Source: Phycisphaerales bacterium (GTDB lineage Bacteria; Planctomycetota; Phycisphaerae; Phycisphaerales; UBA1924). From it: DNA of 64,000 nucleotides. The notes beneath the pieces are model-generated. The model made no database searches and was not told the origin of the DNA. It worked only from the letters and a program-made list of their open reading frames with translations. The stretch lies in the NCBI GenBank assembly GCA_050485765.1, contig JBJHBZ010000013.1, forward strand, positions 5,272 to 69,271, given 5' to 3'. The position numbers and the translations under genes were made by a program. Of the stretch, positions 9 to 63,837 are shown piece by piece (positions within the stretch are counted from its first letter, which is position 1; each line of letters begins with the position of its first letter).

Positions 9-1715
9 GTGCACAACGCTCAGGGCCCGGGGGTGCTGGACCTGCCGGAAGGGTCGCAGCGTGCGGTTGTCTGGACGCCCGCCGGTGTGCGCCTGCTGGA
101 CGACCTGGTGGCGAACCCGCAGGGCTGGACGCTGACGCGGGCGGTGGACATCAACGAGGCGGGGATGATCCTGGCCGAGGGTCGGTACGGGACGGGATGC
201 CGCCGGATGGTGCTGCTGGAGCCAGCGGGCGCGGACGCGGACGGCGACGGCGCGATCACCGGCAACGACGTGTTCCAGCACATCCAGGACGTGATCGAGA
301 ACTCGGCGCGAGCCGACGTGACGGGCACGGGCGAGGTGACCCCGGAGGACACGATCGCGTTCTTAATGATGCACGGCGAGCAGGACACGGGCGCCGTGGC
401 GGGCTCGGACCTGCCGTCGATCGATGACGGGTGCGGGACGGTGTGGGCGGTGACCAATGCGATCGGGGTCGCGCCGCGAGTGATCGCGGCACTGACGGAC
501 GGATCGCAGCCGAACGGTGATCAGGCCGATGACATGCGGGGATGCAAGACCTGTGAAGAATACAACCGCACGTACCCGGGCACGTATCACTGGCGCTGCA
601 ATCCGCAATGCTATGGATGCCCGGGCGATGACCCGAACAACCCGCATGCGCCCAACGGGGCTCCCGGATTCCCCGGGAGCGACCCCAACAACCCGCATTC
701 ACCTCATGGAGGCCCGGGCGGTGACGCAGCTCCCGGGAGCAATGGCAACGGTGGCAAGGGGGGAGACGGCGCTCCGGGCACGAAGGCTGATCCGATCATG
801 GATACACCGGCCACAAAAGGCGGTGACGGCGGGGCGGGCGGAAATGGGAGCGGTACTGGTCGCGGTGGGGACGGTGGTAGCGGCGGACAAGGCGGCAACG
901 GCGACCTTGACAGCCCTGGTGCTTCCGGAGGCGACGGAGGCAAAGGGGGAGAAGGAGGCGCAAACGGAGCTGGTGGGAACGGTGGCCGTGGCGGTCCTGG
1001 TGGGGAAGGTGGTGGTACTGCGATCGGCGGAGATGGCGGCAATGGTGGACACGCCGGCGATGGCAATCGGACCGGACGGGGAGGAAATGGCGGCGCAGGC
1101 GGACATGGGATCAACGGCGGCCATGGCGGACACGGTGGTGATGGCGGCAACGGCGGAACCGAAGGCCCCACAAACACACGAGGTAATGGAGGCAACGGAG
1201 GTGACGGCGGAGCTGGTGGGCCGTCCTATGGAAATCATCCAGGAGGTTCGGGCGGTGACGGCGGACACGGTGGAAACGGGCGGTCAGCCGGAGGCGGTGG
1301 AAACGGTGGTCACGGAGGTGGTGCCAACACACATCCCGATGGACAAGGCGGCAGCGGCGGGCAAGGTGGCGATGGAGGTGACGGAACCCAGAATGGCGGA
1401 CGCGGTGGGACCGGCGGAAGAGGTGGCAGCAGCACCGGCAACGGCGGCGATGGGGGTAACGGGGGAGAAGGCGGCCATGGACAGCACACTGGCGGTGACG
1501 GGGGAAATGGCGCGAACGGTGGAAATGGCACCGACTCGGGCGGAGATGGCGGGCATGGCGGACGAGGAGGTGGCGGAAGTGTTCACAGTGGAAACGGCGG
1601 AAATGGGGGGAACGGTGGAACCAGCGGACCAGACGGCCAACCGGGTACCGGCGGCAACGGCGGCCCGAAAGGCAACGGGCCCGGTGGTCAGCCGGGGACA
1701 CCCGGCAGCCCTTGA
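9..1715 (+). CDS. Surface/secreted glycine-rich repeat protein, probably 5'-truncated by the window edge. It has a HAF-like repeat, an Asp-rich Ca-binding-like segment, a Cys/Pro-rich linker and a ~330-aa GGxGGxGG tract.
   Basis: The frame stays open to nt 3. Motifs: [14 protein letters not shown] (HAF-type repeat), [13 protein letters not shown] (EF-hand/dockerin-like), [24 protein letters not shown]. From about nt 720 there are dozens of GG[NDHAS]GG units (PGRS-like). The antisense Pro-rich ORFs mirror this repeat. Confidence 0.6.
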
Positions 1716-1991
1716 ATGATGCCTCGCACATAACCCTGAGAGCATGAAGAACATGAGATCGCACGCTTCGTGACACCACTCGCCCCGGGCCTTGCTCGGG
1801 GCGTTTTCTTTCGTGCCGTCGCTCGCGTGCGGGAACTGTCCGCGACGGGGGGCGGAGAGTGGGCAGGGGGAACGCCGGGCCGACGCCCGGGGCGCGGTTC
1901 GGCTAGGCTTAGAGCCCGGCGAATCGAGCGGGCGGAGGGGTGTGTGTGACGGCTTTCGGCGCGGCCGCCGGGACCGGAGAGGTGCAGACCG

Positions 1992-3149
1992 ATGAGCGTG
2001 AGCAGCGACACCCAGACCGACGCCTCGCACGTGGGGCACGTGGTTCTCCCGGGTGAGAAGAGCCAGGACCCCCACGCGACGCGCTGGGGCAAGTTCCTGC
2101 TGGCGACGATCAAGTTCGAGGCGTCGGACCTGATCATGAAGAGCGACCAGAAGCCGAAGATCCGGCTCAAGGGCTCGCTGAAGCCGCTGGACACCGAGGT
2201 GGTGACGGCTTCGGAGTTCCGGTCGATCGCCGAGCACATCCTGACACCCGAGCAGTTCGACGACCTGCACAAGTTCGGGTCGGTCGACTTCGCGTACGAC
2301 TACGACGACGTGAACCGGTTCCGCGTGAACCTGTTCATGGCCAAGGGCAAGCTGAGCGTGGCGGCGCGGCGGATCACGGCGAACATCATGCCGTTCGAGA
2401 AGCTGCACCTCCCGCCGATCATGGCCGACATCGCGATGCAGCCGCAGGGCATCGTGCTGCTCTGCGGCGTGACGGGCTCTGGTAAGTCGACGACGATCGC
2501 GTCGATGCTCGACTACGTGAACGAGCGGAAGCCCGTCCACATCGTGACGATCGAGGACCCGATCGAGTACGTGTTCACGGACAAGAAGGCGACGATCAAC
2601 CAGCGTGAGATCGGGATCGACTGCCTGGACTTCAAGGTCGCGCTCCGGGCGCTGGTGCGTGAGAACCCGGACATCGTGCTCGTGGGCGAGATGCGGGACA
2701 ACGAGACGTTCGAGGCGGCGCTGCACGCGGCCGAGACGGGGCACCTGGTCTACGGGACGATCCACGCGTCGAGCACGACGCAGACGTTCAGCCGCATTTA
2801 CGGGTTGTTCGAGCAGGAAGAGGTGGAGCAGGTCCGGCGGATCCTGGCGTACCAGATGCGTGCGTTTGTGTATCAGAAGCTGCTGCCGACGCTGCACGAG
2901 AACATCCACCGGATCCCGGCGCTGGAGATCCTGATCAACAACTCGATCGTGTCGAAGTTTGTGCTGGAGGAGCGCGAGGGCGAGCTCCGGGAGTATCTGA
3001 ACACGATCGAGGCTCGCCAGGCTGGGAACAAGGACTTCAACCAGTCGCTGGTGGAGCTTGTGGAGCAGGAGTACATCCATATGCGTGTGGCGTTGGACGC
3101 GTCGCCGAACGTGGACGACCTGCAGATGCGTTTGAAGAAGCTGAAGTGA
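1992..3149 (+). CDS. pilT: Type IV pilus retraction-type ATPase (PilT/PilU family)
   Basis: Walker A GVTGSGKSTT, Asp box VTIEDPIEY, Walker B PDIVLVGEMRD, His box TGHLVYGTIHASS. Length 385 aa. Confidence 0.85.
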   Translation: MSVSSDTQTDASHVGHVVLPGEKSQDPHATRWGKFLLATIKFEASDLIMKSDQKPKIRLKGSLKPLDTEVVTASEFRSIAEHILTPEQFDDLHKFGSVDFAYDYDDVNRFRVNLFMAKGKLSVAARRITANIMPFEKLHLPPIMADIAMQPQGIVLLCGVTGSGKSTTIASMLDYVNERKPVHIVTIEDPIEYVFTDKKATINQREIGIDCLDFKVALRALVRENPDIVLVGEMRDNETFEAALHAAETGHLVYGTIHASSTTQTFSRIYGLFEQEEVEQVRRILAYQMRAFVYQKLLPTLHENIHRIPALEILINNSIVSKFVLEEREGELREYLNTIEARQAGNKDFNQSLVELVEQEYIHMRVALDASPNVDDLQMRLKKLK

Positions 3150-3186: not shown

Positions 3187-5022
3187 GTGTCGTCGGTTTG
3201 TGAGGCTCGCCGCCAGTGTGGGCGGGCCGGGGGTGCCGAGAACGTGATCGAGCAGACAGTGGCATCGTTGTGGTCGCCCGGGTCCGTCGTCGGTTTTTCG
3301 ACGCTGGCGGCCGAGGGGTACGTGCTGGTCTCGTGGTGGAAGCCGTTCATACTGCTGCTGCCGCTCCTGGTGTGGGGGTACATCGTTTCGACGGTGTACG
3401 ACAAGCACGCGGCCCGCTTCCACCTCCCGCGGGAGCAGTGGAACACGATGCACCTGTGCGTCGGGCTGGCGGGCGTGATCGTGCCGCTGCTGATCCCGAT
3501 CGCCGCCTGGTGGGGCGTGATCGTGGCGCTGGCGGCGCAGGTGGCGATCCTGAGCGTGAGCATCTTCAGCTACCCGCTGGTGGCGAACAAGGACGAGCGC
3601 GTGCCGGAGCGGCACCGCGTCAAGTTCAGCCTGGCCGAGGCGCTGGCGGCGCGCCGGGCCAAGTCGGCGGCTGCCAAGAAAGACGCCCAGACCAGCGAGC
3701 TCGACATCACGGACGCGGACAAGATGCGCCTGCCCCCGCCGGAGCGTGAGACGCCGGAGTTTGACCTCCGCGTCGCGGCCGAGCGCGTGGTGCTGCGGGG
3801 CAAGGAGCTCCGGGCGAGCCAGGTGGATGTCCTCCCGGCGAAGGACGGGTCGTACGTGCCGAGCTACCTGATCGACGGCGTGCGTCAGAACGGCGAGGCG
3901 ATGCCGGCGCAGCAGGCCGTCCCGATCATCGACTTCTGGAAGCGGGTCGCGGGGATGGACACGCAGGAGCGTCGCAAGCGCCAGAGCGGGTCGTTCAAGG
4001 TCCGTCGCGACACGGACACGACCGACGTCTACGCGAGCAGCAGCGGGACGCAGGGCGGCATGCGCCTGACGATGCAGTTCGACCAGGCGAAGGCGGTCCG
4101 AAAGCCGATCGAAGATCTTGGCCTGCTCGATCCGCAGCTCGACGCGGTGCGGGGGCTGGTCGCCGAGCCCGGCGGCGTGGTGCTGCTGGCGGCAACGCCC
4201 GACCAGGGCTCGACGACGACGGTCTACGCGATCACCAAGCTGCACGACGCGTACACGTCCAACGTGCAGACGGTGGAGCCGGAGCGGACCGAGTCGATGC
4301 TCGAGGGCGTGCGTCAGAACGTCATCGACCCGCTGAACCCGGACCAGGACTTCGCGAAGACGGTGCGTTCGATCCTGCGCCGCGACCCGGACGTGGTCTC
4401 GGTCGCGGCCGTGCCGGACGCCGAGACGGCGCGGGAGATCGCCTCGGGCGACCTGGCCCGCTCACGGGTCTACGTCGCGCTCCGGGCGGACTCGGCGCTC
4501 GCGGCGATCCAGCTCTGGGTCAAGAGCGTGGGCGACGCCGAGAAGGCGAGCGCGCACCTCAAGGGCGTGATCGCGCAGCGTCTGGTGCGTCGCCTGTGCG
4601 TCAACTGTCGCCAGCCGTACCAGCCCAGCCCGGACATGCTGAAGAAGCTCGGGTTGCCCGTCGACCGGGTGAAGCAGCTCTTCAAGAAGGGCGGGCAGGT
4701 GATGATCAAGAACAAGCCGGAGATCTGCCCGGTCTGCAACGGCGTGGGGTACATCGGGCAGGCCGGCGCGTTCGAGGTCTTCCCGCTGGGCGACGCCGAG
4801 CGGAAGCTGATCCGCGCGGGCGACCTGAGCGGTCTGAAGGCGGAGCTCCGCAAGCGCCAGCTCCCGACGATCCAGCAGGCGGCGTTGCGCCTGGCGGTCG
4901 AGGGTGTGACGAGCGTGGAAGAGGTCGGGCGTGCGACGGCCCCGCCGGCGCCCTCGGGGGGCGCCTCCCGCGGCAAGCCCCAGCCGCCGCCGATGCCCAA
5001 GGCCGCGACGCCCGCCAACTGA
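3187..5022 (+). CDS. Membrane-anchored GspE/PilB-family protein with degenerate ATPase motifs (predicted pseudo-ATPase)
   Basis: The N-terminus has 3-4 hydrophobic helices (FILLLPLLVWGYIVSTVY; LCVGLAGVIVPLLIPIAAWWGVIVALAAQVAILSVSIF). A GspE N2-like segment is present (YLIDGVRQNG...MDTQERRKRQSGSF). The tetra-Cys motif is retained (CVNCRQPY...CPVCNGVGYIGQAGAFEVF). Walker A is ATPDQGSTTT, Walker B is DPDVVSVAAVPD, and the His box is RSRVYVALRAD. GTG start at 3187; in-frame alternative GTG at 3244. Confidence 0.7.
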   Translation: MSSVCEARRQCGRAGGAENVIEQTVASLWSPGSVVGFSTLAAEGYVLVSWWKPFILLLPLLVWGYIVSTVYDKHAARFHLPREQWNTMHLCVGLAGVIVPLLIPIAAWWGVIVALAAQVAILSVSIFSYPLVANKDERVPERHRVKFSLAEALAARRAKSAAAKKDAQTSELDITDADKMRLPPPERETPEFDLRVAAERVVLRGKELRASQVDVLPAKDGSYVPSYLIDGVRQNGEAMPAQQAVPIIDFWKRVAGMDTQERRKRQSGSFKVRRDTDTTDVYASSSGTQGGMRLTMQFDQAKAVRKPIEDLGLLDPQLDAVRGLVAEPGGVVLLAATPDQGSTTTVYAITKLHDAYTSNVQTVEPERTESMLEGVRQNVIDPLNPDQDFAKTVRSILRRDPDVVSVAAVPDAETAREIASGDLARSRVYVALRADSALAAIQLWVKSVGDAEKASAHLKGVIAQRLVRRLCVNCRQPYQPSPDMLKKLGLPVDRVKQLFKKGGQVMIKNKPEICPVCNGVGYIGQAGAFEVFPLGDAERKLIRAGDLSGLKAELRKRQLPTIQQAALRLAVEGVTSVEEVGRATAPPAPSGGASRGKPQPPPMPKAATPAN

Positions 5023-5100: not shown

Positions 5101-6891
5101 ATGATCCTGAATCTGATCGTGATCGGCGCGGTGCTGGGCATCGGGTACGTGTGGGTGACCCGGGGCTTTTTCAGTGCGCTGCTGCACCTGATCTGCGTGA
5201 TCATCGGCGGCGCGATCGCGCTGGCGGTGTGGGAGCCGCTGGCGTACCTGATTGTCAACAACGTGCCCGAGAGCGGGTTCTTCACCTTCCTGGAAGGCGT
5301 CGCGTGGGGCGCGGCGTTGATCCTGCCGTTCGCGATCGCGACCGCGCTCCTGCGTCTGGCGGTCGACTCGGCGGTGCCGGCGAACGTCAAGGTGCCGGCG
5401 GTCGCCGATTACGTCGGGGGCGGGGTCTGCGGCGGGATCGCCGCGGTGCTGACCATGGGCATCGTCATCACCGGCGTCGGGCACACGCGGGTCGCGTCGG
5501 AGTTCTTCGGCTACAAGCCGCTGAGCACCACCGTCAGCGGGCTCACGCAGGAATCCAGCCTCTGGCTCCCGGTCGACCGGATCACCGGGGCCGTCTACGG
5601 GCACCTCTCGAGCGGCGTGTTCAGCACGACGCAGCCGCTGAGCACCTGGCACCCGGACTTCGCGACCGCGCCGGCCGCGATGCGCATGAGCCTGGGCGAC
5701 GGGAAAGGCCGCAACGTCATGCCGCCGAGCGCGGTCCGCGTCATCTCGTCGTGGACGCTCGGCAAGGACGACGCGCAGACGACCCTCCGCGACCTGATGC
5801 GGGATGAGTGGAGCCCCGCGACGCAGAACCCGCAGCGCGTCAACGGCGAGCCCTTCAACCCGCAGAGTCATATCGTGGGGTACATGCTCCGCATCGGGCC
5901 GGAGGCGCGGGAGACCCGGGGCAACGTCGTCGTCAGCGAGGGGCAGATCCGCCTGGTGACGCGCAACCGGCGGACGGGCTCGAGCATGGCGGTGCACCCG
6001 ATCGCGGCCGTCAGCCCGGCGGCGGGCGAGACCAACCCGCCCGTCTACGGCCGCTGGCGGTTCGACGGGAACTTCCACCTGACGAGCGTGGGCGGGGCCG
6101 CCGAGACGCTGATGGGCTTCGAGTTCGTGGTGGAGCCGGGGTACGAGCCGATCGGTCTGACGATCAAGAACACGCGGCTCCCGCTGCGCGGGCTCGAGCC
6201 GCTGGCGTTTACGAGCTATCAGGAGCGTGACCGCGCGATCCGGACGGGGGCGTTGCTCGCGGGGGCCGGCGAGGCCGGCGAGTTCGACGCCTCCGAGGCG
6301 AACCGCGTCTCGACCGGGACGCCGGGCGCTGGTGAGCAGGGGAGCGGTGTGGTGGTCGGGCGGACCCTGCCGAACCGCCTGGTGATCCAGCGCGGGACGC
6401 ACCGGAGCCTGGAGATCGACGGGAACGAGATCATCCGCGGCGTGCAGGCGTTCAACCCGAACGAGTTCCAGCGTGCCGCCAGCATCCCGATGAACCTCCA
6501 GATCCGCCAGTTCCGCACCACGCCGGACACGACGCTGGTGCAGGTCGACGTGAGCCTGCGTTCGCGTCAGAGCCTGCTGGGCCAGGCGGCGGCCGCGGCC
6601 GAGCGCGTCGTCCCGCCCGAGCTGATCGACACCAACGGGAACCGGTACCAGGCGATCGGGTACGTCTACCGCGACCAGTCGATCGTGCGCCTGCGGTACA
6701 CGCCGGACCGCCCGATCCGCGGGCTGACCGAGCTCGAGGGCGACGGCGTCGGGCTCAGCCGCTCCGCGGCGGGCCAGGAGCTCACGCTGATCTTCCTGGT
6801 CAGCACCGGCGTCAACGTCGAGCGCTTCGTGATCGGCAACACCGTGATCGCCGAGTACGAGCCGCCGATCGACGCCAGCGGGCGACGCTGA
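5101..6891 (+). CDS. Integral membrane protein with a CvpA-like N-terminal multi-TM region and a large beta-rich C-terminal domain of unknown function
   Basis: N-terminus MILNLIVIGAVLGIGYVWVTRGFFSALLHLICVIIGGAIALAVWEPLAYLIV plus 2-3 more hydrophobic segments. GC3-rich codon usage. Last gene before a strong terminator. Confidence 0.6.
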   Translation: MILNLIVIGAVLGIGYVWVTRGFFSALLHLICVIIGGAIALAVWEPLAYLIVNNVPESGFFTFLEGVAWGAALILPFAIATALLRLAVDSAVPANVKVPAVADYVGGGVCGGIAAVLTMGIVITGVGHTRVASEFFGYKPLSTTVSGLTQESSLWLPVDRITGAVYGHLSSGVFSTTQPLSTWHPDFATAPAAMRMSLGDGKGRNVMPPSAVRVISSWTLGKDDAQTTLRDLMRDEWSPATQNPQRVNGEPFNPQSHIVGYMLRIGPEARETRGNVVVSEGQIRLVTRNRRTGSSMAVHPIAAVSPAAGETNPPVYGRWRFDGNFHLTSVGGAAETLMGFEFVVEPGYEPIGLTIKNTRLPLRGLEPLAFTSYQERDRAIRTGALLAGAGEAGEFDASEANRVSTGTPGAGEQGSGVVVGRTLPNRLVIQRGTHRSLEIDGNEIIRGVQAFNPNEFQRAASIPMNLQIRQFRTTPDTTLVQVDVSLRSRQSLLGQAAAAAERVVPPELIDTNGNRYQAIGYVYRDQSIVRLRYTPDRPIRGLTELEGDGVGLSRSAAGQELTLIFLVSTGVNVERFVIGNTVIAEYEPPIDASGRR

Positions 6892-6931: not shown

Positions 6932-6964
6932 AAAAACGGGCGGCCCCGCGGGGTCGCCCGTTTT
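6932..6964. terminator. Bidirectional intrinsic terminator between convergent genes 5101..6891 and rplI
   Basis: GAAAAACGGGCGGCCCCGCGGGGTCGCCCGTTTTGTG: a GC-rich hairpin of about 11-12 bp with an A-tract on one side and a T-tract on the other. Confidence 0.7.
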
Positions 6965-56379: not shown

Positions 56380-56455
56380 AGCCCCGCGCCCCTCTTCACC
56401 CCCACGACCACCCCACGCCCGCCCGCCCCGTTTGCACCACCCACCGGAGCCCGCC

Positions 56456-57364
56456 ATGCGCATCGCGATGACCTTCACCCGCCTGCGAACCGAGGAACGC
56501 CTGCTCCTCGACGCGTTCGAATCGCTCGGCGTCCGCGTCGACCCGATCGACCTCCGACGCGTCGTCTTCGACCCCGCACGCCTCGGCGAGTGGGCGTCCT
56601 ACGACGCGGTGATCGATCGATCGGTCAGCCTCACCGCCGGGCTCACGGCGGTCCGCGTTCTCGAAGGGCTCGGCCTGCGCTGCATCAACGCCGCCGACGC
56701 GATCGAGACCTGTTCCGACAAGCTCCGCACCACGATCGCGCTGCTCCGCGCGGGCGTGCCGACGCCGGGCGTGCGCGTCGCGATCGGGCCGGAAGCCGGA
56801 CTAGAGGCGATCGAGGCGATCGGGTACCCCGCGGTGCTGAAGCCGACCATCGGCTCTTGGGGGCGGCTCGTGGCGCGTGTGAACGACCGCGACGCGAGCG
56901 AGGCCCTGCTGGAGCACCGCGACACGCTCGGCTCCGCCCAGCAGAGCGTCGTCTACGCCCAGGAGCACATCGACAAGCCGGGGCGCGACATCCGCGTCTT
57001 CGTCGTCGGCGGCGAGGCGATCGCCGCGATCGTGCGCACGAGCGCGCACTGGGTGACCAACACCGCCCGCGGCGCGACGGCCGCCGGGCTGGAGCTCACC
57101 GACGACATGCGCGAGCTCTGCACCCACGCCGTCGCGTCGACCGGGGCCGACGTCGCGGCCGTGGACGTCCTCGAATGCCCGGCCCGCGGCCCGCTCGTCA
57201 ACGAGATCAACCACTCCATGGAGTTCCGCAACAGCATCACCACCACCGGCGTCGACATCCCGGCCCACGTCGCGCGCCACGTCGTGCAGATTGCCGAAGA
57301 TGCCCGCAACAGCGGCGCCCGTGCGCACGAGAGCGTGCGCCCCGAAGCCGGGGTGAGCGCGTGA
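56456..57364 (+). CDS. lysX: ATP-grasp ligase LysX (alpha-aminoadipate--LysW ligase; RimK family)
   Basis: GYPAVLKPTIGSWGRLVARV, YAQEHIDKPGRDIRVFVVGGEAIAAIVRTSAHWVTNTARG, VNEINHSMEFRN. Same GGAGCCCGCCATG start context as lysW. Confidence 0.9.
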   Translation: MRIAMTFTRLRTEERLLLDAFESLGVRVDPIDLRRVVFDPARLGEWASYDAVIDRSVSLTAGLTAVRVLEGLGLRCINAADAIETCSDKLRTTIALLRAGVPTPGVRVAIGPEAGLEAIEAIGYPAVLKPTIGSWGRLVARVNDRDASEALLEHRDTLGSAQQSVVYAQEHIDKPGRDIRVFVVGGEAIAAIVRTSAHWVTNTARGATAAGLELTDDMRELCTHAVASTGADVAAVDVLECPARGPLVNEINHSMEFRNSITTTGVDIPAHVARHVVQIAEDARNSGARAHESVRPEAGVSA

Positions 57365-58389
57365 GCCTGCGCGTCTCGATCATCGGCGGGAGCGGGTACA
57401 CCGGCGGCGAATTGCTGCGCCTGCTGCTCGCCCACCCGGGAGCGGAGATCGCGCAGGTCACCTCCCGCCGTCTCGCGGGGGAGCCGGTCGCGCGCACGCA
57501 CCCGAACCTGCGCGGGCACGTGGCGCACACGTTCTGCACGCCGGAGGAGGTCGAAGCGTGCGACGTGCTGTTTCTGTGCATGCCGCACGGGCAGGCGGCG
57601 GCGCAGGTCGAGCGCTGGCGCTCGATCGCGCCGCGGATCATCGATCTTTCGGCCGACCTGCGCCTGCGTGATCCCGCGTCGTACGAGCGTTGGTACAACG
57701 AGCCCCACCCCGAGCCGCGTCTCCTCACCGAGGCGGTGTACGGGCTTGCCGAGATCTCGCGCGACCGCCTGCCCAGCGCGACGCTCATCTCTGGCGTCGG
57801 GTGCAACGCGACCGCGATGACCCTCGCCCTCCTCCCACTCGCCCGCGCGGGTCTGATCCGGCGCGTAATCGCGGACGTGAAGGTCGGCTCCTCGGAAGCC
57901 GGCGCTGAGCCCGGCCCGGGCTCGCATCACCCCGTCCGTGCGCGCGCCGCCCGCACCTACAGCCCCAGCGGGCATCGGCATATCGCCGAAGTTCTGCAGT
58001 CGCTCGGCGAGATCGATCTCGACGCGACCGTCACCGCGATCGACATGGTTCGCGGCGTGCTCTGCACCGCGCACGTCGAGCCGACCGAACCCGTGACGAG
58101 CAAGGATCTCTGGAAGCTCTACCGCGCCGCCTACGCCGAGGAGCCGTTCGTGCGCCTCGTCGCCGAGCGGAGCGGACCGAGCCGCTTCCCGGACCCGCGC
58201 ACGCTCATCGGCTCCAACCACGCCGACGTCGGCTTCGCGATCGACGAACGCTCCGGGCGCATCCTCGCGCTGTGCGCGATCGACAACCTCGTCAAAGGCG
58301 CGGCCGGCTCAGCCATCCAGGCGATGAACGTCGCGATGGGGCTCCCCGAAACCTCCGGGCTCACCTTCCCCGGCCTGCACCCCGCCTGA
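57361..58389 (+). CDS. lysY: LysW-aminoadipyl-phosphate reductase (ArgC family)
   Basis: VSIIGGSGYTGGELLRLL, GVGCNATA (active-site Cys). GTGA overlap with lysX. Confidence 0.85.
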   Translation: MSLRVSIIGGSGYTGGELLRLLLAHPGAEIAQVTSRRLAGEPVARTHPNLRGHVAHTFCTPEEVEACDVLFLCMPHGQAAAQVERWRSIAPRIIDLSADLRLRDPASYERWYNEPHPEPRLLTEAVYGLAEISRDRLPSATLISGVGCNATAMTLALLPLARAGLIRRVIADVKVGSSEAGAEPGPGSHHPVRARAARTYSPSGHRHIAEVLQSLGEIDLDATVTAIDMVRGVLCTAHVEPTEPVTSKDLWKLYRAAYAEEPFVRLVAERSGPSRFPDPRTLIGSNHADVGFAIDERSGRILALCAIDNLVKGAAGSAIQAMNVAMGLPETSGLTFPGLHPA

Positions 58390-58428
58390 ATTAACCCGGC
58401 CTGAACCCCGCAAACCCGCGAGAACACC

Positions 58429-59262
58429 ATGTCCACGATTGTCATCAAGATCGGCGGCGGCGAAGGGATCGATCCGGCGCAGGCCGCCCCGGAAATCGCC
58501 CAACTCGTCCGCGACGGACGCCGCGTCGTGCTCGTCCACGGCGGCTCACACGAGACAAACCAGCTCGCCGAAGCGCTCGCACATCCGACGCGAACGATCA
58601 CCAGCCCCAGCGGGCATACCTCGCGGCGCACCGACCGGCGCACGCTCGAGATCTTCAGCATGGCGTACTGCGGCCTGGTCAACACACGCGTCGTCGAGAG
58701 TCTTCGACGCGAAGGCGTTGACGCGATCGGGCTGAGCGGCATCGACGCCGGGCTCTGGATCGGCACACGCAAGAGCGCCATCCGCGCGATCGAGGAGGGG
58801 CGGACCGTGCTCATCCGCGACGATCTCTCGGGTAAGGTCGATCGGGTCAACGCCGAACTCCTGAACATGCTGCTGGATTCGGGACGCGTGCCGGTCCTCA
58901 CGCCGCCCGCGGTCACGCCCGACGGCATCGCGATCAATGTCGATGCGGATCGCGCCGCCGCCGCGACCGCCGGGGCATTGCAGGCGGATGAACTACTCCT
59001 GCTCTCCAACGTGCCCGGGCTCCTTCACGATCCGGCGGACCCGTCGTCACGGATCGCGAACGTCAATCCATCCACGCTCGAAGCCGCACGCTCGCACGCA
59101 CGCGGGCGGATGAAGAACAAGGTCCTCGCGGCCGAAGAAGCGCTCGGCGCGGGCGTGCCGCGCGTTGTGATCGCCAGCGCGACACGCGACCGCGCGATCG
59201 CGCACGCCAGGCTCGGCGACGGCACCATGTTCATCAACACGCCGAGCGAGGTGACCGCGTGA
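58429..59262 (+). CDS. lysZ: LysW-aminoadipate kinase (ArgB / amino-acid kinase family)
   Basis: IVIKIGGGEG...VVLVHGGSHETNQL and NVDADRAAAATAGAL. Confidence 0.85.
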   Translation: MSTIVIKIGGGEGIDPAQAAPEIAQLVRDGRRVVLVHGGSHETNQLAEALAHPTRTITSPSGHTSRRTDRRTLEIFSMAYCGLVNTRVVESLRREGVDAIGLSGIDAGLWIGTRKSAIRAIEEGRTVLIRDDLSGKVDRVNAELLNMLLDSGRVPVLTPPAVTPDGIAINVDADRAAAATAGALQADELLLLSNVPGLLHDPADPSSRIANVNPSTLEAARSHARGRMKNKVLAAEEALGAGVPRVVIASATRDRAIAHARLGDGTMFINTPSEVTA

Positions 59263-60371
59263 GCGCCGGCAGACTCGCCATGACGGACAGCGTTCGAATC
59301 GTGCACGACCTGGTCGCGACGCCGAGCGTTTCAGGCGATGAGCACGCCGCGGCGCGGGTATTCGCGAGCCACGCCGAACGCCTCGGCATGACGCCCGAGA
59401 TCGACCAAGCGGGCAACGCCCTCGCGCACCGCGGCGCCCCGAACGCCCGCACGCACATCGTCCTGCTCGGCCACATCGACACCGTACCCGGACGCATCCT
59501 CGTGCGGATCGAAGACCGCGCCCTGCACGGACGCGGAAGCGTCGACGCCAAGGGCCCGCTCGCAGCAATGCTCGTTGCGGCGTCAAACGCCGAACTGCCG
59601 GAGGGCGTCCGTCTCACGGTGGCCGCGGCCGTGGGCGAAGAGACCGCCGGCTCGCCCGGGGCTCGGCACCTCGTGCACCAGTACCGACCCGACGCGTGCA
59701 TCATCGGCGAGCCGAGCGGGTGGGACGGCGTCACGCTCGGCTACAAGGGACGTCTGCTCGTCACCGCCAGCACAACACGCGAGCACGCGCACTCCGGAGG
59801 CCCCCAGCCGAGCGCCTGCGATGAAATCCACGATTGGTGGAGCCGTGTGCTGGATCTTGCAAACTCGTTTAATACGCCACACGAACGCGCGTTCGACCAG
59901 TTGCAGACTTCCCTCCGCAGCATCGCGAGCGAGGAAGACGCCTTCCACCAGCACGTCCGCGCGCACGCCGGGTTCCGCCTCCCGCTCACGCTCACACCCG
60001 CGCAGCTCCGCCAGCAACTCGTATCGATCGCGAGCGAGCACACCCGCCTCGAGTTCGACGGCATGGAGCACGCGTTCGCCACCGATCGAAACGACCCGGT
60101 CGTACGCGCCCTCTCCGGCGCGATCCGCCAGCACGACGGGCGCCCGCGCCCCAAGCTCAAGACCGGCACGTCCGACATGAACGTCGTCGCCCCGCACTGG
60201 CGTTGCCCCATCGCCGCCTACGGACCAGGCGACAGCTCGCTCGACCACACACCGCACGAACACCTCGACCTCGACGAGTACGAGCGCGCGATCCGTGTGC
60301 TCCGGACCTCGCTCGAAACGCTCGCGAACGAACTCGCCACACGCTCAGACACGCCGCAGAACGCTGAATAA
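59259..60371 (+). CDS. lysK: LysW-lysine hydrolase (M20 / ArgE family)
   Basis: LVATPSVSGDE, LLGHIDTVPG, GRGSVDAKGP, GEETAG. GTGA overlap with lysZ; an alternative ATG lies at 59280. Confidence 0.8.
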   Translation: MSAGRLAMTDSVRIVHDLVATPSVSGDEHAAARVFASHAERLGMTPEIDQAGNALAHRGAPNARTHIVLLGHIDTVPGRILVRIEDRALHGRGSVDAKGPLAAMLVAASNAELPEGVRLTVAAAVGEETAGSPGARHLVHQYRPDACIIGEPSGWDGVTLGYKGRLLVTASTTREHAHSGGPQPSACDEIHDWWSRVLDLANSFNTPHERAFDQLQTSLRSIASEEDAFHQHVRAHAGFRLPLTLTPAQLRQQLVSIASEHTRLEFDGMEHAFATDRNDPVVRALSGAIRQHDGRPRPKLKTGTSDMNVVAPHWRCPIAAYGPGDSSLDHTPHEHLDLDEYERAIRVLRTSLETLANELATRSDTPQNAE

Positions 60372-60386
60372 CCGGAGTTTCCAGAC

Positions 60387-61241
60387 ATGCCCGCCACCGC
60401 AGCCACATCGCGACCGCCGCCCACACCACGCGCGACGCACGACGGCCCGAGCCTCGTGCGCGACGGCGAGATCCTCGCACGCGGCCTGCCCATCGGGCAC
60501 CTCATCGCCAACCAGTCTTACATCGACGCGATCTTCTTCCAGCTCCAGGCCCGCGAGCCGACGCCGCTCGAACGCACCATGATGGACGCCTACCTCGTCG
60601 CGCTCTGCGAGCACGGTGTGACCTCTCCGTCCACGCACGGCCCGCGTGTCACCGCCAGCGTGCGCGCGCCATTTGCCGCGACCGCGGTGAGCTTCATCGC
60701 CACCGCGATGGGCCCCTATCACTTCGGCGCACTCGAACGCACGATGCACACCCTCCTCGAGCTCGACGCGACGGATGAAGACATACCGAGCTACATCGAT
60801 CGAAAGGCCGCCGAAGGGGAGCGAGTCTGGGGCTTCGGGCACCGCTTCCACAAGAGCACGGGCGAGCCTGACCCGCAGCAGGCGGCGCAAGAAGACGCCG
60901 ACCCGCGCGTGCGCGCACTGATCCGCCTGGCCGACGAGCTCGGGTGGCCGGGGCGCCATCTGCAACGTGTCCGAGAGCTCGGGCGCGCACTCCACGAACG
61001 CAAGCGCATCCCGATCAACATCGACGGCGTCGCCGCCGGCCTGCTGCTGGACATGGGCTTCGAGCCCGAAACCGCCCTGCTCTTTGTCATCCTCGGCCGC
61101 CTGCCGAACATCGCCCGCTTGCACGCCGAGGAGCAGCACGAAACCACCAATCGCTTCACGGCTCTCGCCACACGCGAAGACCCCGGATTCAACCGCACCA
61201 TCGACCGCGACCAGCACCACACCCGCGAGACCCGCCCATGA
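60387..61241 (+). CDS. Citrate-synthase-fold protein, short form (citryl-CoA-lyase-like)
   Basis: LCEHGVTSPSTH, GFGHRFHKS (compare GFGHRVYK in gltA at 44867..45997) and INIDGVAAGLL (compare NVDFYS). At ~284 aa it lacks the N-terminal third of a full citrate synthase. Confidence 0.65.
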   Translation: MPATAATSRPPPTPRATHDGPSLVRDGEILARGLPIGHLIANQSYIDAIFFQLQAREPTPLERTMMDAYLVALCEHGVTSPSTHGPRVTASVRAPFAATAVSFIATAMGPYHFGALERTMHTLLELDATDEDIPSYIDRKAAEGERVWGFGHRFHKSTGEPDPQQAAQEDADPRVRALIRLADELGWPGRHLQRVRELGRALHERKRIPINIDGVAAGLLLDMGFEPETALLFVILGRLPNIARLHAEEQHETTNRFTALATREDPGFNRTIDRDQHHTRETRP

Positions 61242-61846
61242 ACACCGCCACCATCGCAACAGCAACGACTGACCAAGCGCACGCGATCGCCGAGCTTTTT
61301 CCAAGCATCCGTCAGATCCAGAGCCCCGCGCTGCGCGCACAAGTCGAAGCCGTCTGGCAGGAAGCCATAGCGACGGGCAACGCCGGGCGAGGATGGACGT
61401 CCGACGAACTCCGCGAGCTGCCGTTCACGCTCCTCGCCGGCGCGACGCCGATGCGCTTCATCGAGCATCTCAACAGCTGCGCCGAGCAGTGCCTTGCGAT
61501 CGCCGGCGTGCTCCGATCGACCTTCATCGAACGGGTGCCGATCGACGACGACACACTGCTCGCGGGCGCGCTGCTCGCCGACGTCGGTAAACTGTTCGAG
61601 TTCGAACAATGTCCGGCACGCGGGCTGATCCAGGGCGAATCGGGGCGTCTGCTGCGCCACCCGTTCACCGGGGCCGCGCTCTGCCGAAAGCACAATCTAC
61701 CCGATACCGTCACGCACATCGTCGCGGCCCACAGCCACGAGGGCGACCGCATCCAGCGCTCGATCGAGTGCATCATCTTCCATCACGCCGATTTCATCGA
61801 TTTCGATATCGCCAAGGCCATCGCCGTGGGAGACAACGCGCGATGA
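61238..61846 (+). CDS. HD-domain protein
   Basis: LLADVGK...HPFTGAALC...AAHSHEG...FHHADFIDF gives an H..HD..D metal-ligand pattern. ATGA overlaps on both sides. Confidence 0.6.
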   Translation: MNTATIATATTDQAHAIAELFPSIRQIQSPALRAQVEAVWQEAIATGNAGRGWTSDELRELPFTLLAGATPMRFIEHLNSCAEQCLAIAGVLRSTFIERVPIDDDTLLAGALLADVGKLFEFEQCPARGLIQGESGRLLRHPFTGAALCRKHNLPDTVTHIVAAHSHEGDRIQRSIECIIFHHADFIDFDIAKAIAVGDNAR

Positions 61847-63837
61847 GCACGCACGCAGACCATCGCACCACCATCGAAAAGATCGTGGCGCGTCACGCGG
61901 CCGGGTGGCACGAATCACGTCCGCCGCGAGCAGGCGATTACGTGCGCATCCGCCCGCGTCACGTGATGACCCACGACAACACCAGCGCGGTCATCCCGAA
62001 GTTTCACGCGCTCGCGGGGCGCGACGCCCAGGTCCACGACTCGACCCAGCCCGTCTTCGCGATGGACCACGACATCCAGAACCACACGCCTGAGAACCTC
62101 GGAAAATACGCCCGAATCCGCTCATTCGCCGAGCGCCATGCGATCCGCTATTACCCGCCCGGGCGAGGCATTGCGCATCAGGTCATGATCGAAGAAGGCT
62201 TCGTCACCCCGGGCGCGATGATCGTCGCCTCGGACTCGCACGCCAACATGTACGGCGCGATCGCCGCGCTCGGCACGCCCGTTGTCCGCACCGATGCCGC
62301 CGCGATCTGGGCGACCGGCGAAACATGGTGGCAGGTCCCGCCCCAGGTCCGCGTCACGCTCCGCGGTCGACTCCGGCCCGGCGTAACCGGCAAGGACGTC
62401 GTCCTCGCCCTGTGCGCACGCTTCAACAGCGGCGAAACCCGCAACGCCGCGATCGAGTTCACCGGCGACGGCGTCGCGCACCTCACCATCGCCGACCGGA
62501 TGACCATCGCGAACATGACCACCGAATGGGGCGGTCTCGCCGGCCTCTTCCCTTTTGACGATCGCTTGTACCGCTGGCTGCTCGAGCGGGCCCGAGCACT
62601 CGCGGCCCATCACACACCGGCGTACACCGCAGCCGACGTTCACCAGTGGTGGACGCAGCGCACCGAACTCCATTCCGATCCCGGCGCGTCCTTCGTCCGC
62701 GAGATCGTGCTGGATCTCGCCAGCGTGACGCCGCACGTCACCGGTCCGAACAGCGTGACCACGGCCCGCCCCGTCGCCGACCTCGAGTCGCAGCGCACCC
62801 GCATCGACAAGGCGTACCTGATGAGCTGCGTCAACGCACGCCTCCCCGATTTCGAAGCCGCGGCCGCCGTCTTCGGCGACAGCCGGCGCGTCGCCCCACA
62901 CGTCCGCTTCTACATCGCCGCCGCCTCGAGCGAGGTCCAGCAACAGGCCGAGCGAAGCGGCGCGTGGCGCACGCTCCTCCGGGCGGGCGCGATCCCGCTC
63001 TCGCCCGGGTGCGGCGCCTGCATCGGTCTCGGCGAGGGCACGCTGGAACCCGGCGAAGTCGGCATCAGCGCCACCAACCGAAACTTCGAAGGACGCATGG
63101 GAGCGCGCGACGCCGATTGCTACCTCGCCAGCCCCGCCGTCGTCGCAGAGTCCGCGATCCGCGGGCATATCGCCTCGCCGCACGCCATAACCAGCGAGAT
63201 CATCGCCAGTTCTCACGAAGCGCCCCGCACCCACACCCCACACGCACCGGCACCCTCACTGATCGACGGCTTCCCCGCCTCCATCGACGCCCGCGCGATC
63301 CTGCTCCCGCTCGACCATATCAATACCGACGCCATCTACGACCGCGACGTCACCTACCGCGACGACCTCACGCGAGCGCAGCAAGCCGCCTGCGCGATGC
63401 GGAACTACGACCCCGATTTTCAGCGCATCGCGCACGCCGGCGACGTCCTGATCGCCGGTCACAACTTCGGCGCGGGCTCCAGCCGCGAGCAGGCCGCCAC
63501 GGCACTCCAGGCGTTCGGCATCCGCGCCATCATCGCCGCGAGCCTGAACCAGACCTACCAGCGCAACGCCCTCAACAACGCCCTCATCACCATCGAGTGC
63601 GAGCCGCTTGTCGACCACCTCCGCGCCACCATCGCCCGCACAGCCGCGGCCCGCACCGTCTACGCCCCTCCCGTCCGCATCGACTTCGCCGCATCCACCA
63701 TCGAGTGCGACGCCCGAACGTTCACGTTTCAACCTCTGACCGAGCCCGCGCAGCGTCTGATCGTCGCCGGCGGGCTCGAGTCGCTCCTCGCACGCCGCTT
63801 CCGTCAAACGCCGGAAGCCGCCGGAACGCTCGCATGA
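61843..63837 (+). CDS. Fused large+small subunit aconitase-family dehydratase, predicted homoaconitase
   Basis: HVMTHDNTS, DHDIQN, ASDSHANMYGA, SCVNARLPD, PGCGACIGLG and ATNRNFEGRMG (Fe-S cysteines). Then the swivel domain GHNFGAGSSREQAA on the same polypeptide (664 aa). Confidence 0.8.
   Translation: MSTHADHRTTIEKIVARHAAGWHESRPPRAGDYVRIRPRHVMTHDNTSAVIPKFHALAGRDAQVHDSTQPVFAMDHDIQNHTPENLGKYARIRSFAERHAIRYYPPGRGIAHQVMIEEGFVTPGAMIVASDSHANMYGAIAALGTPVVRTDAAAIWATGETWWQVPPQVRVTLRGRLRPGVTGKDVVLALCARFNSGETRNAAIEFTGDGVAHLTIADRMTIANMTTEWGGLAGLFPFDDRLYRWLLERARALAAHHTPAYTAADVHQWWTQRTELHSDPGASFVREIVLDLASVTPHVTGPNSVTTARPVADLESQRTRIDKAYLMSCVNARLPDFEAAAAVFGDSRRVAPHVRFYIAAASSEVQQQAERSGAWRTLLRAGAIPLSPGCGACIGLGEGTLEPGEVGISATNRNFEGRMGARDADCYLASPAVVAESAIRGHIASPHAITSEIIASSHEAPRTHTPHAPAPSLIDGFPASIDARAILLPLDHINTDAIYDRDVTYRDDLTRAQQAACAMRNYDPDFQRIAHAGDVLIAGHNFGAGSSREQAATALQAFGIRAIIAASLNQTYQRNALNNALITIECEPLVDHLRATIARTAAARTVYAPPVRIDFAASTIECDARTFTFQPLTEPAQRLIVAGGLESLLARRFRQTPEAAGTLA

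Follow-up and report, generated by a model that had tools for sequence, protein, structure and literature searches.

Which role is left to a secretion ATPase in which every catalytic motif has been replaced and which is held in the membrane by helices of its own? This question is raised by an open reading frame (ORF) in a stretch of 64,000 nucleotides from a Phycisphaerales bacterium (GenBank assembly GCA_050485765.1, contig JBJHBZ010000013.1, positions 5,272 to 69,271), which is called the window in the following. A preliminary description, made from the letters alone, had taken the ORF for a conserved, membrane-anchored pseudoenzyme of the GspE/PilB type, and our results uphold this core reading. 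Going beyond it, they place the gene in a conserved pilT–pseudoE–CvpA-like operon, assign its product to a phylum-wide clade and reveal an anchoring that likely came before the loss of the motifs.

The gene of this pseudo-ATPase and the parts of its product are located as follows:

3187..5022 (+): gene of the membrane-anchored GspE/PilB-type pseudo-ATPase, ORF as listed and present in the window
3754..4158 (+): N2 domain of the GspE/PilB type, from phmmer and Foldseek alignments to EpsE, PilB and PilF
3967-3993 (+): N2 arginine segment ERRKRQSGS, retained; R238 and R239 invariant in 120 sequences
4159..4938 (+): C-terminal RecA-like ATPase-fold domain (CTD) with remodelled motifs, from alignments, conservation and the verified translation
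4192-4221 (+): Walker A remnant ATPDQGSTTT (canonical GPTGSGKSTT); Lys replaced by Ser, two of the three Gly gone
4243-4272 (+): family-specific motif HDAYTSNVQT, directly before the Asp-box remnant; H329, D330, Y332 and T333 invariant in the Phycisphaerales family
4273-4293 (+): Asp-box remnant VEPERTE (canonical TVEDPIE becomes TVEPERTE); first Glu (E340) alone kept
4402-4419 (+): Walker B remnant VAAVPD (canonical VGEIRD); catalytic Glu replaced by Ala
4459-4488 (+): His-box remnant RSRVYVALRA (canonical TGHLV.STLH becomes ARSRVYVALR); both His replaced
4597-4608 (+): tetracysteine motif, CVNC; C447 and C450 invariant in 120 homologues
4726-4749 (+): tetracysteine motif, CPVCNGVG; C490 and C493 invariant in 120 homologues
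4939..5019 (+): Pro/Ala-rich, unconserved C-terminal tail; pLDDT 56-72, ratio of nonsynonymous to synonymous substitution rates (dN/dS, ω) about 0.5-1.0

The motifs were compared in two ways, by a phmmer alignment to the Vibrio GspE/EpsE sequence 4pht and by a BLASTP alignment to P0261, a relative which is likewise anchored by transmembrane (TM) helices and has canonical motifs (31% identity, E 6e-67). Both alignments agree in the replacement of all four catalytic motifs, as the preliminary description had claimed from a comparison with the PilT of the same window, and the coordinates were confirmed by translation. A functional P-loop at another place was looked for as well, and neither GK[ST] nor G[KR][ST] occurs elsewhere in the whole ORF, so that a displaced P-loop is absent. 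The N2 segment and the tetracysteine motif, both said earlier to have been conserved, proved to be invariant in 120 homologues; the latter is a predicted zinc-binding site of the GspE/PilB subgroup. The core of the family-specific motif, HD[AP][YF]T, is recognisable across most of the degenerate clade to which the protein belongs, canonical relatives having there only a partial xDAY or xDAF.

The Walker A lysine and the Walker B glutamate are indispensable in GspE, PilB and PilT. Single substitutions at the catalytic positions reportedly abolish function in these three proteins, a study by Chiang et al. of 2008, cited in the review PMC11656802, being said to give an example. Since this lysine, this glutamate and both histidines of the His box are gone, and since hydrophobic residues prevail at the lysine position of the wider clade, the pseudo-ATPase of this window very probably does not hydrolyse ATP.

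By sequence and fold the protein belongs to the T2SSE superfamily, as had been proposed with its homology to GspE and PilB. Residues 222-581 of 611 match the Pfam profile T2SSE (PF00437) with 130.5 bits (E 8e-38; gathering score 24.9), covering profile positions 35-369 of 370, and the closest sequence of solved structure found by phmmer is that of 4pht (E 1e-39). An AlphaFold2 (AF2) model computed from 120 homologues (pLDDT 91, pTM 0.75) contains the bilobed fold of N2 and RecA-like CTD, for which Foldseek returned PilF, PilB and EpsE as top matches (E ~1e-33, TM-score ~0.85, target-normalised up to 0.86). At the same time the protein fails by its catalytic motifs and stays below each curated equivalog threshold, scoring 170.3 bits against a cutoff of 630.25 for GspE (TIGR02533), 144.6 against 675.65 for PilB (TIGR02538), 146 against 850 for TfpB (NF053534) and 23.3 against 319.1 for PilT/PilU (TIGR01420). 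The match to TIGR02533 begins only at profile position 114 of 486, thus an N1 domain is missing. Database labels of the homologues are generic, such as 'ATPase, T2SS/T4P/T4SS family', 'TadA' or 'GspE/PulE family'.

The N-terminal part, for which three to four TM helices had been predicted, is indeed a membrane anchor, and the number of helices is three according to both the AF2 model and the Kyte-Doolittle profile. In the model of the 587-amino-acid (aa) form these three long helices are followed by a linker of ~55 residues and then by the N2 and CTD body. The elements of the anchor are:

3337..3417 (+): TM helix 1 (WKPFILLLPLLVWGYIVSTV...), running into a cytoplasmic juxtamembrane motif; AF2 helix 27-53, pLDDT >90 from residue ~30, Kyte-Doolittle 19-residue peak 1.83
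3397..3426 (+): motif YDKHAARFHL of the loop between TM1 and TM2, predicted cytoplasmic; 3 K/R in the loop
3430..3489 (+): TM helix 2; AF2 helix 58-77, W61 invariant, N62, H65 and G69 conserved to at least 90%
3511..3585 (+): TM helix 3; AF2 helix 85-109, Kyte-Doolittle peak 2.43

Among 120 homologues W27, K28 and P35 in the region of TM helix 1 are nearly invariant; in the loop motif H50 is invariant, and D48, K49, A51, R53, F54 and L56 are conserved to at least 90%. The D-K-x-A core of this loop is found again in most of the wider clade. A positively charged segment, NKDERVPERHRVK, follows directly after TM helix 3, and the counts of lysine and arginine (none at the N-terminus and in loop 2, 3 in loop 1 and 5 behind TM3) fit a topology with the N-terminus outside and the C-terminus inside. 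Because of the five positive charges behind TM3, the ATPase-like domains and the cysteine motif are predicted to lie in the cytoplasm. A Pfam scan of the N-terminal 194 aa alone gave chance-level matches only.

It had to be considered whether this hydrophobic N-terminus belongs to the same gene at all. The TM region and the ATPase fold are read in one frame uninterrupted by a stop, the alignment by BLASTP to P0261 is unbroken from TM2 to the C-terminus, and the TM region is kept in all 120 close homologues as well as in about 100 distant cluster representatives. The anchor is therefore part of the gene, and only the start has to be corrected: the first ~19-24 codons of the ORF as listed are probably untranslated, the real start being either GTG 3244 or GTG 3259. 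The former yields MIEQT..., in agreement with MVEQS... of the orthologue P0003 (81% identical), whereas the latter corresponds to the database protein P0001 of 587 aa, which has the identical sequence. The choice between the two leaves the pseudo-ATPase finding unaffected.

A protein without its catalytic residues may be the product of a decaying gene, and conservation was analysed in this respect. At E<1e-10, a word-indexed search detected at least 893 homologues, of which the best 120 are 49-89% identical, ~570-600 aa long and all derived from metagenome-assembled genomes of Phycisphaerales/Phycisphaerae. In a scan with one genome per species, the closest relative was that of Phycisphaerales DLM2.Bin69 with 89% identity. 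Across these 120 sequences 52 alignment columns are invariant, several of them in the TM segment and the juxtamembrane loop, and none of 87 orthologous loci contains a frameshift or a premature stop. Eight apparent internal stops in orthologues were traced to tblastn over-extension beyond the true C-terminal stop.

For 73 pairs of 70-96% identical orthologues we obtained dN/dS values of 0.04-0.43 with the NG86 method; these are probably overestimated, as dS is compressed in a genome of 70% GC with a GC content at third codon positions (GC3) of ~0.94, and saturated distant pairs (e.g. with locus L001) were left out. In the same genomes PilT ranges from 0.01 to 0.15, except for one pair at 0.34, and the downstream CvpA-like gene from 0.09 to 0.68. 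Within the small clade of the window's protein ω of the pseudo-ATPase is 0.22-0.30. Regional medians from 63 pairs are 0.18 for the TM part, 0.20 for the linker, 0.22 for N2 and 0.13 for the CTD. The residues of the former catalytic motifs have a median ω of 0.14 in these pairs, a constraint equal to that on the remaining domain, which means that the former ATP pocket is remodelled yet still constrained and not drifting. The gene is maintained by purifying selection and not decaying, as the preliminary description had argued from the retained segments.

Within the Phycisphaerales family the replacement of the motifs follows a common pattern. The consensus P-loop is LLAAPPDMGRTTTLY; its glycine ahead of the lysine position is invariant in the 120 sequences, the Walker A lysine is exchanged for arginine in 107 of them (G-R-T-T), and an aspartate lies within the P-loop in 103. 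The Walker B consensus reads VAE[LM]PD, with Glu or Asp in 117 of 120, and both histidines of the His box are Arg or Lys. A further step, from Arg to Ser and from Glu to Ala or Thr, was taken by the window's protein and its two closest relatives, and within its immediate family this protein marks the extreme.

When 1.84 billion cluster representatives were searched exhaustively with a profile, the family proved to be much wider, and 108 full-length TM-bearing representatives were scored. The Walker A lysine is absent in 104 of the 108 and its substitutes are chemically unrelated residues; the position is occupied by L (32), R (18), V (17), Q (15), M (8), I (7), K (4), G (3), S (2) or T (2). 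The Walker B glutamate and both histidine positions are scrambled as well. Kept are the P-loop glycine (108/108), the next Ser/Thr (103/108), the first glutamate of the Asp box (105/108) and the four cysteines (104/108). Catalysis thus appears to be dispensable in this clade, with the fold and part of the pocket retained. The clade comprises at least 100 clusters at 50% identity, and in a scan with one genome per species the Phycisphaerales subfamily alone was found in at least 313 genomes. All named members are Planctomycetota, namely Phycisphaerales, Sedimentisphaerales, unclassified Phycisphaerae and 'Planctomycetes', and Schlesneria. The window's protein carries the traits of the clade, that is two to three N-terminal TM helices with the D-K-x-A loop, the HD[AP][YF]T motif and a CvpA-family gene directly downstream.

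All motifs are canonical in four TM-anchored members, namely P0238 from a Schlesneria-like genome, P0256, P0258 and P0261. In a rough neighbour-joining tree rooted on soluble tandem ATPases they are basal, all degenerate forms falling into a single derived clade. As the canonical motifs are complete in these basal, TM-anchored proteins, membrane anchoring likely came first, followed by a single loss of catalysis and finally by a broad radiation.

Two side observations concern the sequences collected for this comparison. P0191, P0192, P0198, P0204, P0206, P0211, P0218, P0224, P0225, P0237, P0243, P0246 and P0255 are soluble proteins of ~1000 aa with two separate profile-matching stretches each, of which the aligned one has canonical motifs; they resemble tandem fusions in which two ATPase modules of the GspE/PilB type are joined. 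Furthermore, loci of the Phycisphaerales type, with pseudo-ATPase and CvpA-like gene at ~50-52% identity, occur in two metagenome-assembled genomes under the names 'Cyanobacteria bacterium CYA' (L021, RHKP01000026.1), where pilT was detected, and 'Leptolyngbya sp. PLA1' (L067, QWIH01000058.1), where it was undetected. Both contigs are probably mis-binned or mislabelled.

The gene context gives further hints on the role of the protein. The pseudo-ATPase gene stands between two co-oriented genes, and the unit includes the following elements:

1781..1803 (+): terminator-like GC-rich hairpin with a T-tract tail, TTTTCTTT; 10-bp stem with 9 GC pairs
1992..3149 (+): pilT, first gene of the unit, for a canonical hexameric ATPase of the PilT/PilU family, 385 aa; all four catalytic motifs intact, TIGR01420 with 370.7 bits against a cutoff of 319.1
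5101..6891 (+): gene of the CvpA-like partner, 596 aa, with four N-terminal TM helices at 5104-5481; weak match to Pfam Colicin_V in the N-terminal 140 aa, E 6e-4
6948..6961 (+): weak terminator-like hairpin after the third gene; overlaps the minus-strand hairpin 6949-6936 that follows rplI

The gaps measure ~95-110 nt between pilT and the pseudo-ATPase gene and 78 nt between the latter and the CvpA-like gene. Terminator-like sites were found on the coding strand at both flanks of the unit (1781-1803 and 6948-6961) and not between the three genes. The first of them is likely the upstream boundary of the operon, because it comes after a Gly-rich ORF (9..1715). Across the 87 loci pilT lies directly upstream of the pseudo-ATPase gene in 77, its product being 73-98% identical in all but one, and the CvpA-like gene lies directly downstream in 86.

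The closest PDB match of the window's PilT is Aquifex PilT (1e-77), and in the alignment to it the C-terminal segment corresponding to the PilT signature AIRNLIRE reads SIVSKFVLE. With regard to the distribution of pilT, the idea that it is present only where the GspE-like protein is dead had to be given up, as the canonical P0261 has a PilT upstream as well. PilT of this unit may be a specialised paralogue and not a classical retraction motor.

Homologues of the partner are labelled 'CvpA family protein' by NCBI. Its AF2 model (pLDDT 94, pTM 0.91) contains a beta-rich domain of ~470 residues (~128-596), and a Foldseek search of the structure against the PDB gave no match at E<1e-3. This domain may comprise one or more new folds, and because of the loop charges it is predicted to be periplasmic. 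In distant subfamilies the arrangement recurs with PilT, pseudo-ATPase and a CvpA-like protein of 713 aa (P0142) or with PilT, pseudo-ATPase and a protein of 552 aa (P0152). Among canonical relatives a PilT-like protein, the TM-anchored ATPase and a CvpA protein of 390 aa are encoded together in the case of P0261, and P0238 is followed by a CvpA protein of 244 aa without PilT. A CvpA-family gene is thus found beside members of distant subfamilies and beside canonical relatives, too, which makes the CvpA four-helix domain the constant element of the locus. The length of the partner varies between 244 and 713 aa among the lineages, this domain staying the same.

What does a pseudo-ATPase do in such a unit? 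Because its fold, zinc motif, N2 arginines and part of its pocket are under selection and because it is membrane-integral beside a CvpA-type protein, it is best read as a non-catalytic structural or regulatory subunit. With a confidence somewhat better than even, we favour a membrane-integral scaffold or regulator, probably forming a ring, that works with PilT and the CvpA-like partner. We infer its oligomeric state, its contacts with both proteins and its cellular role as follows. The pseudo-ATPase would oligomerise as its relatives do, probably to a hexamer, and the ring would be held under the membrane by its own TM helices. In the membrane it would join the CvpA-type four-helix domain of the partner and act as the stationary, non-catalytic part of the module for docking or transmission, for which the co-encoded canonical PilT would supply the ATP turnover.

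Several points weigh against this proposal. It is gene order that suggests a physical interaction with PilT or the CvpA-like protein, pilT is missing from the locus in about 10% of the genomes, and the canonical relative P0258 has neither neighbour. The neighbour-joining tree from which the order of events was taken is crude and without support values. Moreover, most family members may still bind nucleotide or hydrolyse it slowly, because G-R-T-T, an acidic residue in Walker B, the first glutamate of the Asp box and the N2 arginines persist in the Phycisphaerales consensus; the small clade of the window's protein is exempt from this caveat, as it is alone in losing both the arginine and the acidic residue.

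A more specific version of the scaffold, which we put forward only tentatively, is an unrecognised envelope machine, widespread in the Planctomycetota, that is neither a pilus nor a type II secretion system (T2SS). In such a machine the dead GspE-type ring would clamp or surround a CvpA platform, and PilT as the sole motor would work the periplasmic domain of the partner. A hexameric ring would hold 18 TM helices in this case. If true, this would be the first functional context for the widespread and enigmatic CvpA family.

Constraint on the former pocket is also what a ligand-binding switch would call for. Its remodelled pocket would bind ATP, ADP or some other phosphorylated compound but not turn it over, and by way of the ring's conformation the occupancy would control how active PilT or the partner is. 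The pocket is under the same constraint as the remaining CTD, the P-loop glycine with the Ser/Thr, the first Asp-box glutamate and the N2 arginines are kept almost universally, the immediate family has an arginine in place of the lysine together with an acidic Walker B residue, and the new HD[AP][YF]T motif adjoins the pocket. However, the lysine position is hydrophobic (L, V, M or I) in 64 of 108 representatives, which is hard to square with phosphate binding, and the aspartate in the P-loop of 103 of 120 sequences would repel phosphate. The window's protein in addition has lost both the arginine (now Ser) and the acidic residue of Walker B (now Ala). We regard such a switch as unlikely.

The presence of a GspE/PilB-type protein beside a true PilT-family protein leads to a further thought, since the pairing of PilB and PilT is the logic of type IVa pili and since the ancestral form of the module consists of an active TM-anchored PilB-like protein and PilT. 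Here the module would assist an ordinary type IV pilus or T2SS-like machine whose genes lie elsewhere in the genome, and its dead PilB-like protein would tune extension and retraction of the pilus by occupying the motor-docking site, by competing for it or by tethering PilT at the machine. But genes for PilC/GspF, PilM/N/O, a secretin, a prepilin peptidase or a pilin were found neither in the window nor in the annotated loci L001, L003, L005, L088, L090 and L092 beside the module; in locus L089 one N_methyl protein is encoded 5 kb from it. The constant partner is CvpA-like and hence of a type without a known place in type IV filament systems, and the N1 domain, which couples GspE and PilB to GspL and PilM, is absent. 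An accessory of this kind is quite improbable.

That the protein is still an ATPase and makes use of non-canonical catalytic residues is very improbable. The fold is intact and E340, T319/T320 and R238/R239 are conserved, but a Lys or Arg in Walker A, an acidic residue in Walker B and a His-box histidine are all missing, each at a position where one exchange is enough to inactivate PilB, PilT or GspE, and the lysine position varies freely over the clade. A decaying pseudogene, or a mis-called ORF with the hydrophobic N-terminus of another gene, is hardly credible: the genome is rich in GC and in long spurious ORFs and the ω of the window's small clade lies near the top of the values seen in the family, but the ORF is intact in all 87 loci, invariant columns reach into a TM region of low ω, GC3 is 0.94 as in the neighbouring genes, P0261 aligns in a single piece and the AF2 model is confident.

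Compared with known systems, the pseudo-ATPase shares with GspE/EpsE (1p9r, 4ksr, 4pht) the N2 and CTD, the N2 arginine segment and the tetracysteine zinc motif, and GspE works at the membrane, too. However, GspE is soluble and tethered by its N1 domain to the bitopic GspL, whereas the pseudo-ATPase has three fused TM helices instead of N1, four non-canonical catalytic motifs and no gspF, gspL, gspM or gspD gene as a neighbour. PilB/PilF proteins (5tsh, 5it5, 5oiu) are its best structural matches, and as in type IVa pili the gene is paired with one of the PilT family; in contrast to them it lacks domains of the N1/MshEN type, is membrane-integral and predicted to be catalytically dead, with no linked pilC, pilM or pilin genes. 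The same architecture is seen in the canonical TM-anchored relatives P0238, P0256, P0258 and P0261, with two to three N-terminal TM helices, linker, N2, CTD and Cys motif (P0261 being alignable over ~500 residues) and, as far as mentioned above, with the CvpA-family gene downstream (P0238, P0261) and a PilT-like protein upstream (P0261). These relatives differ in keeping GPTGxGK[ST]TT, IE[DN]P[IV]EY, GEIRD and TGHxVF[ST]T[IV]HAN and are presumably active.

Two more distant systems may serve as analogies. ArlH/FlaH of the archaellum could be likened to the pseudo-ATPase as a protein of ATPase fold with impaired catalysis that forms a structural or regulatory ring beside an active motor, ArlI; it belongs to the KaiC-like branch, however, is soluble, retains Walker A and comes from another domain of life. 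VirD4/TrwB and FtsK/SpoIIIE are hexameric P-loop ATPases which might be compared for their anchoring by N-terminal TM helices of their own, but they are members of the FtsK/HerA clade, active, and translocate DNA or substrates.

To our knowledge, GspE, PilB, PilT and VirB11 have been described only as soluble hexameric motors that are recruited to the membrane by partners. Nor do we know of any molecular function established for CvpA. In our full-text literature searches we came across neither a GspE/PilB clade described as TM-anchored or catalytically dead nor an association between PilT and CvpA. In a review on PilB (PMC11656802), degenerate GGDEF domains are the only degenerate ones mentioned. 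The departure from the soluble-motor pattern lies in the fact that a whole clade seems to have fused an anchor to the ATPase and then to have dropped catalysis, keeping the fold and a remodelled pocket under selection. This could be used as a natural experiment on what the PilB/GspE ring does apart from burning ATP, be it scaffolding, docking or gating. The clade even offers a graded series, from canonical members through the form with GRTT and Glu to the fully stripped form of this window. The strict linkage to the CvpA family might become a lead on the function of CvpA, and as PilT is linked so often, a process powered by PilT and maybe independent of pili is suggested. Planctomycetota are abundant in the environment and their envelope biology is poorly understood, which adds to the relevance of such a module.

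The remainder of the window is of a housekeeping kind. By tblastn no second T2SSE paralogue was found in the 64 kb, and Pfam analysis of 20 further genes of the window gave housekeeping functions only; among them are the series rplI-ssb-rpsF-pth-rplY-prs-glmU as well as mutS, gltA, aspS and others. PADLOC reported no defence-system match for the pseudo-ATPase or the CvpA-like partner and only generic P-loop matches for PilT. The many long spurious ORFs are generated by the high GC content of this genome. The ORF upstream of the operon (9-1715, +) would encode 568 aa with extremely Gly-rich repeats of the GGxGG type and an N-terminal segment rich in Asp and Gly; it has no Pfam match, and in related genomes a sigma-70 gene is located upstream of pilT in its place. 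At the other end of the window (56432-63837, +) genes for an ATP-grasp protein of the LysX/RimK type, an amino-acid kinase, an M20 peptidase, a short citrate-synthase-like protein and an aconitase-family protein follow each other in series, and this run resembles a cluster for lysine (or arginine) biosynthesis via the LysW-type alpha-aminoadipate route.

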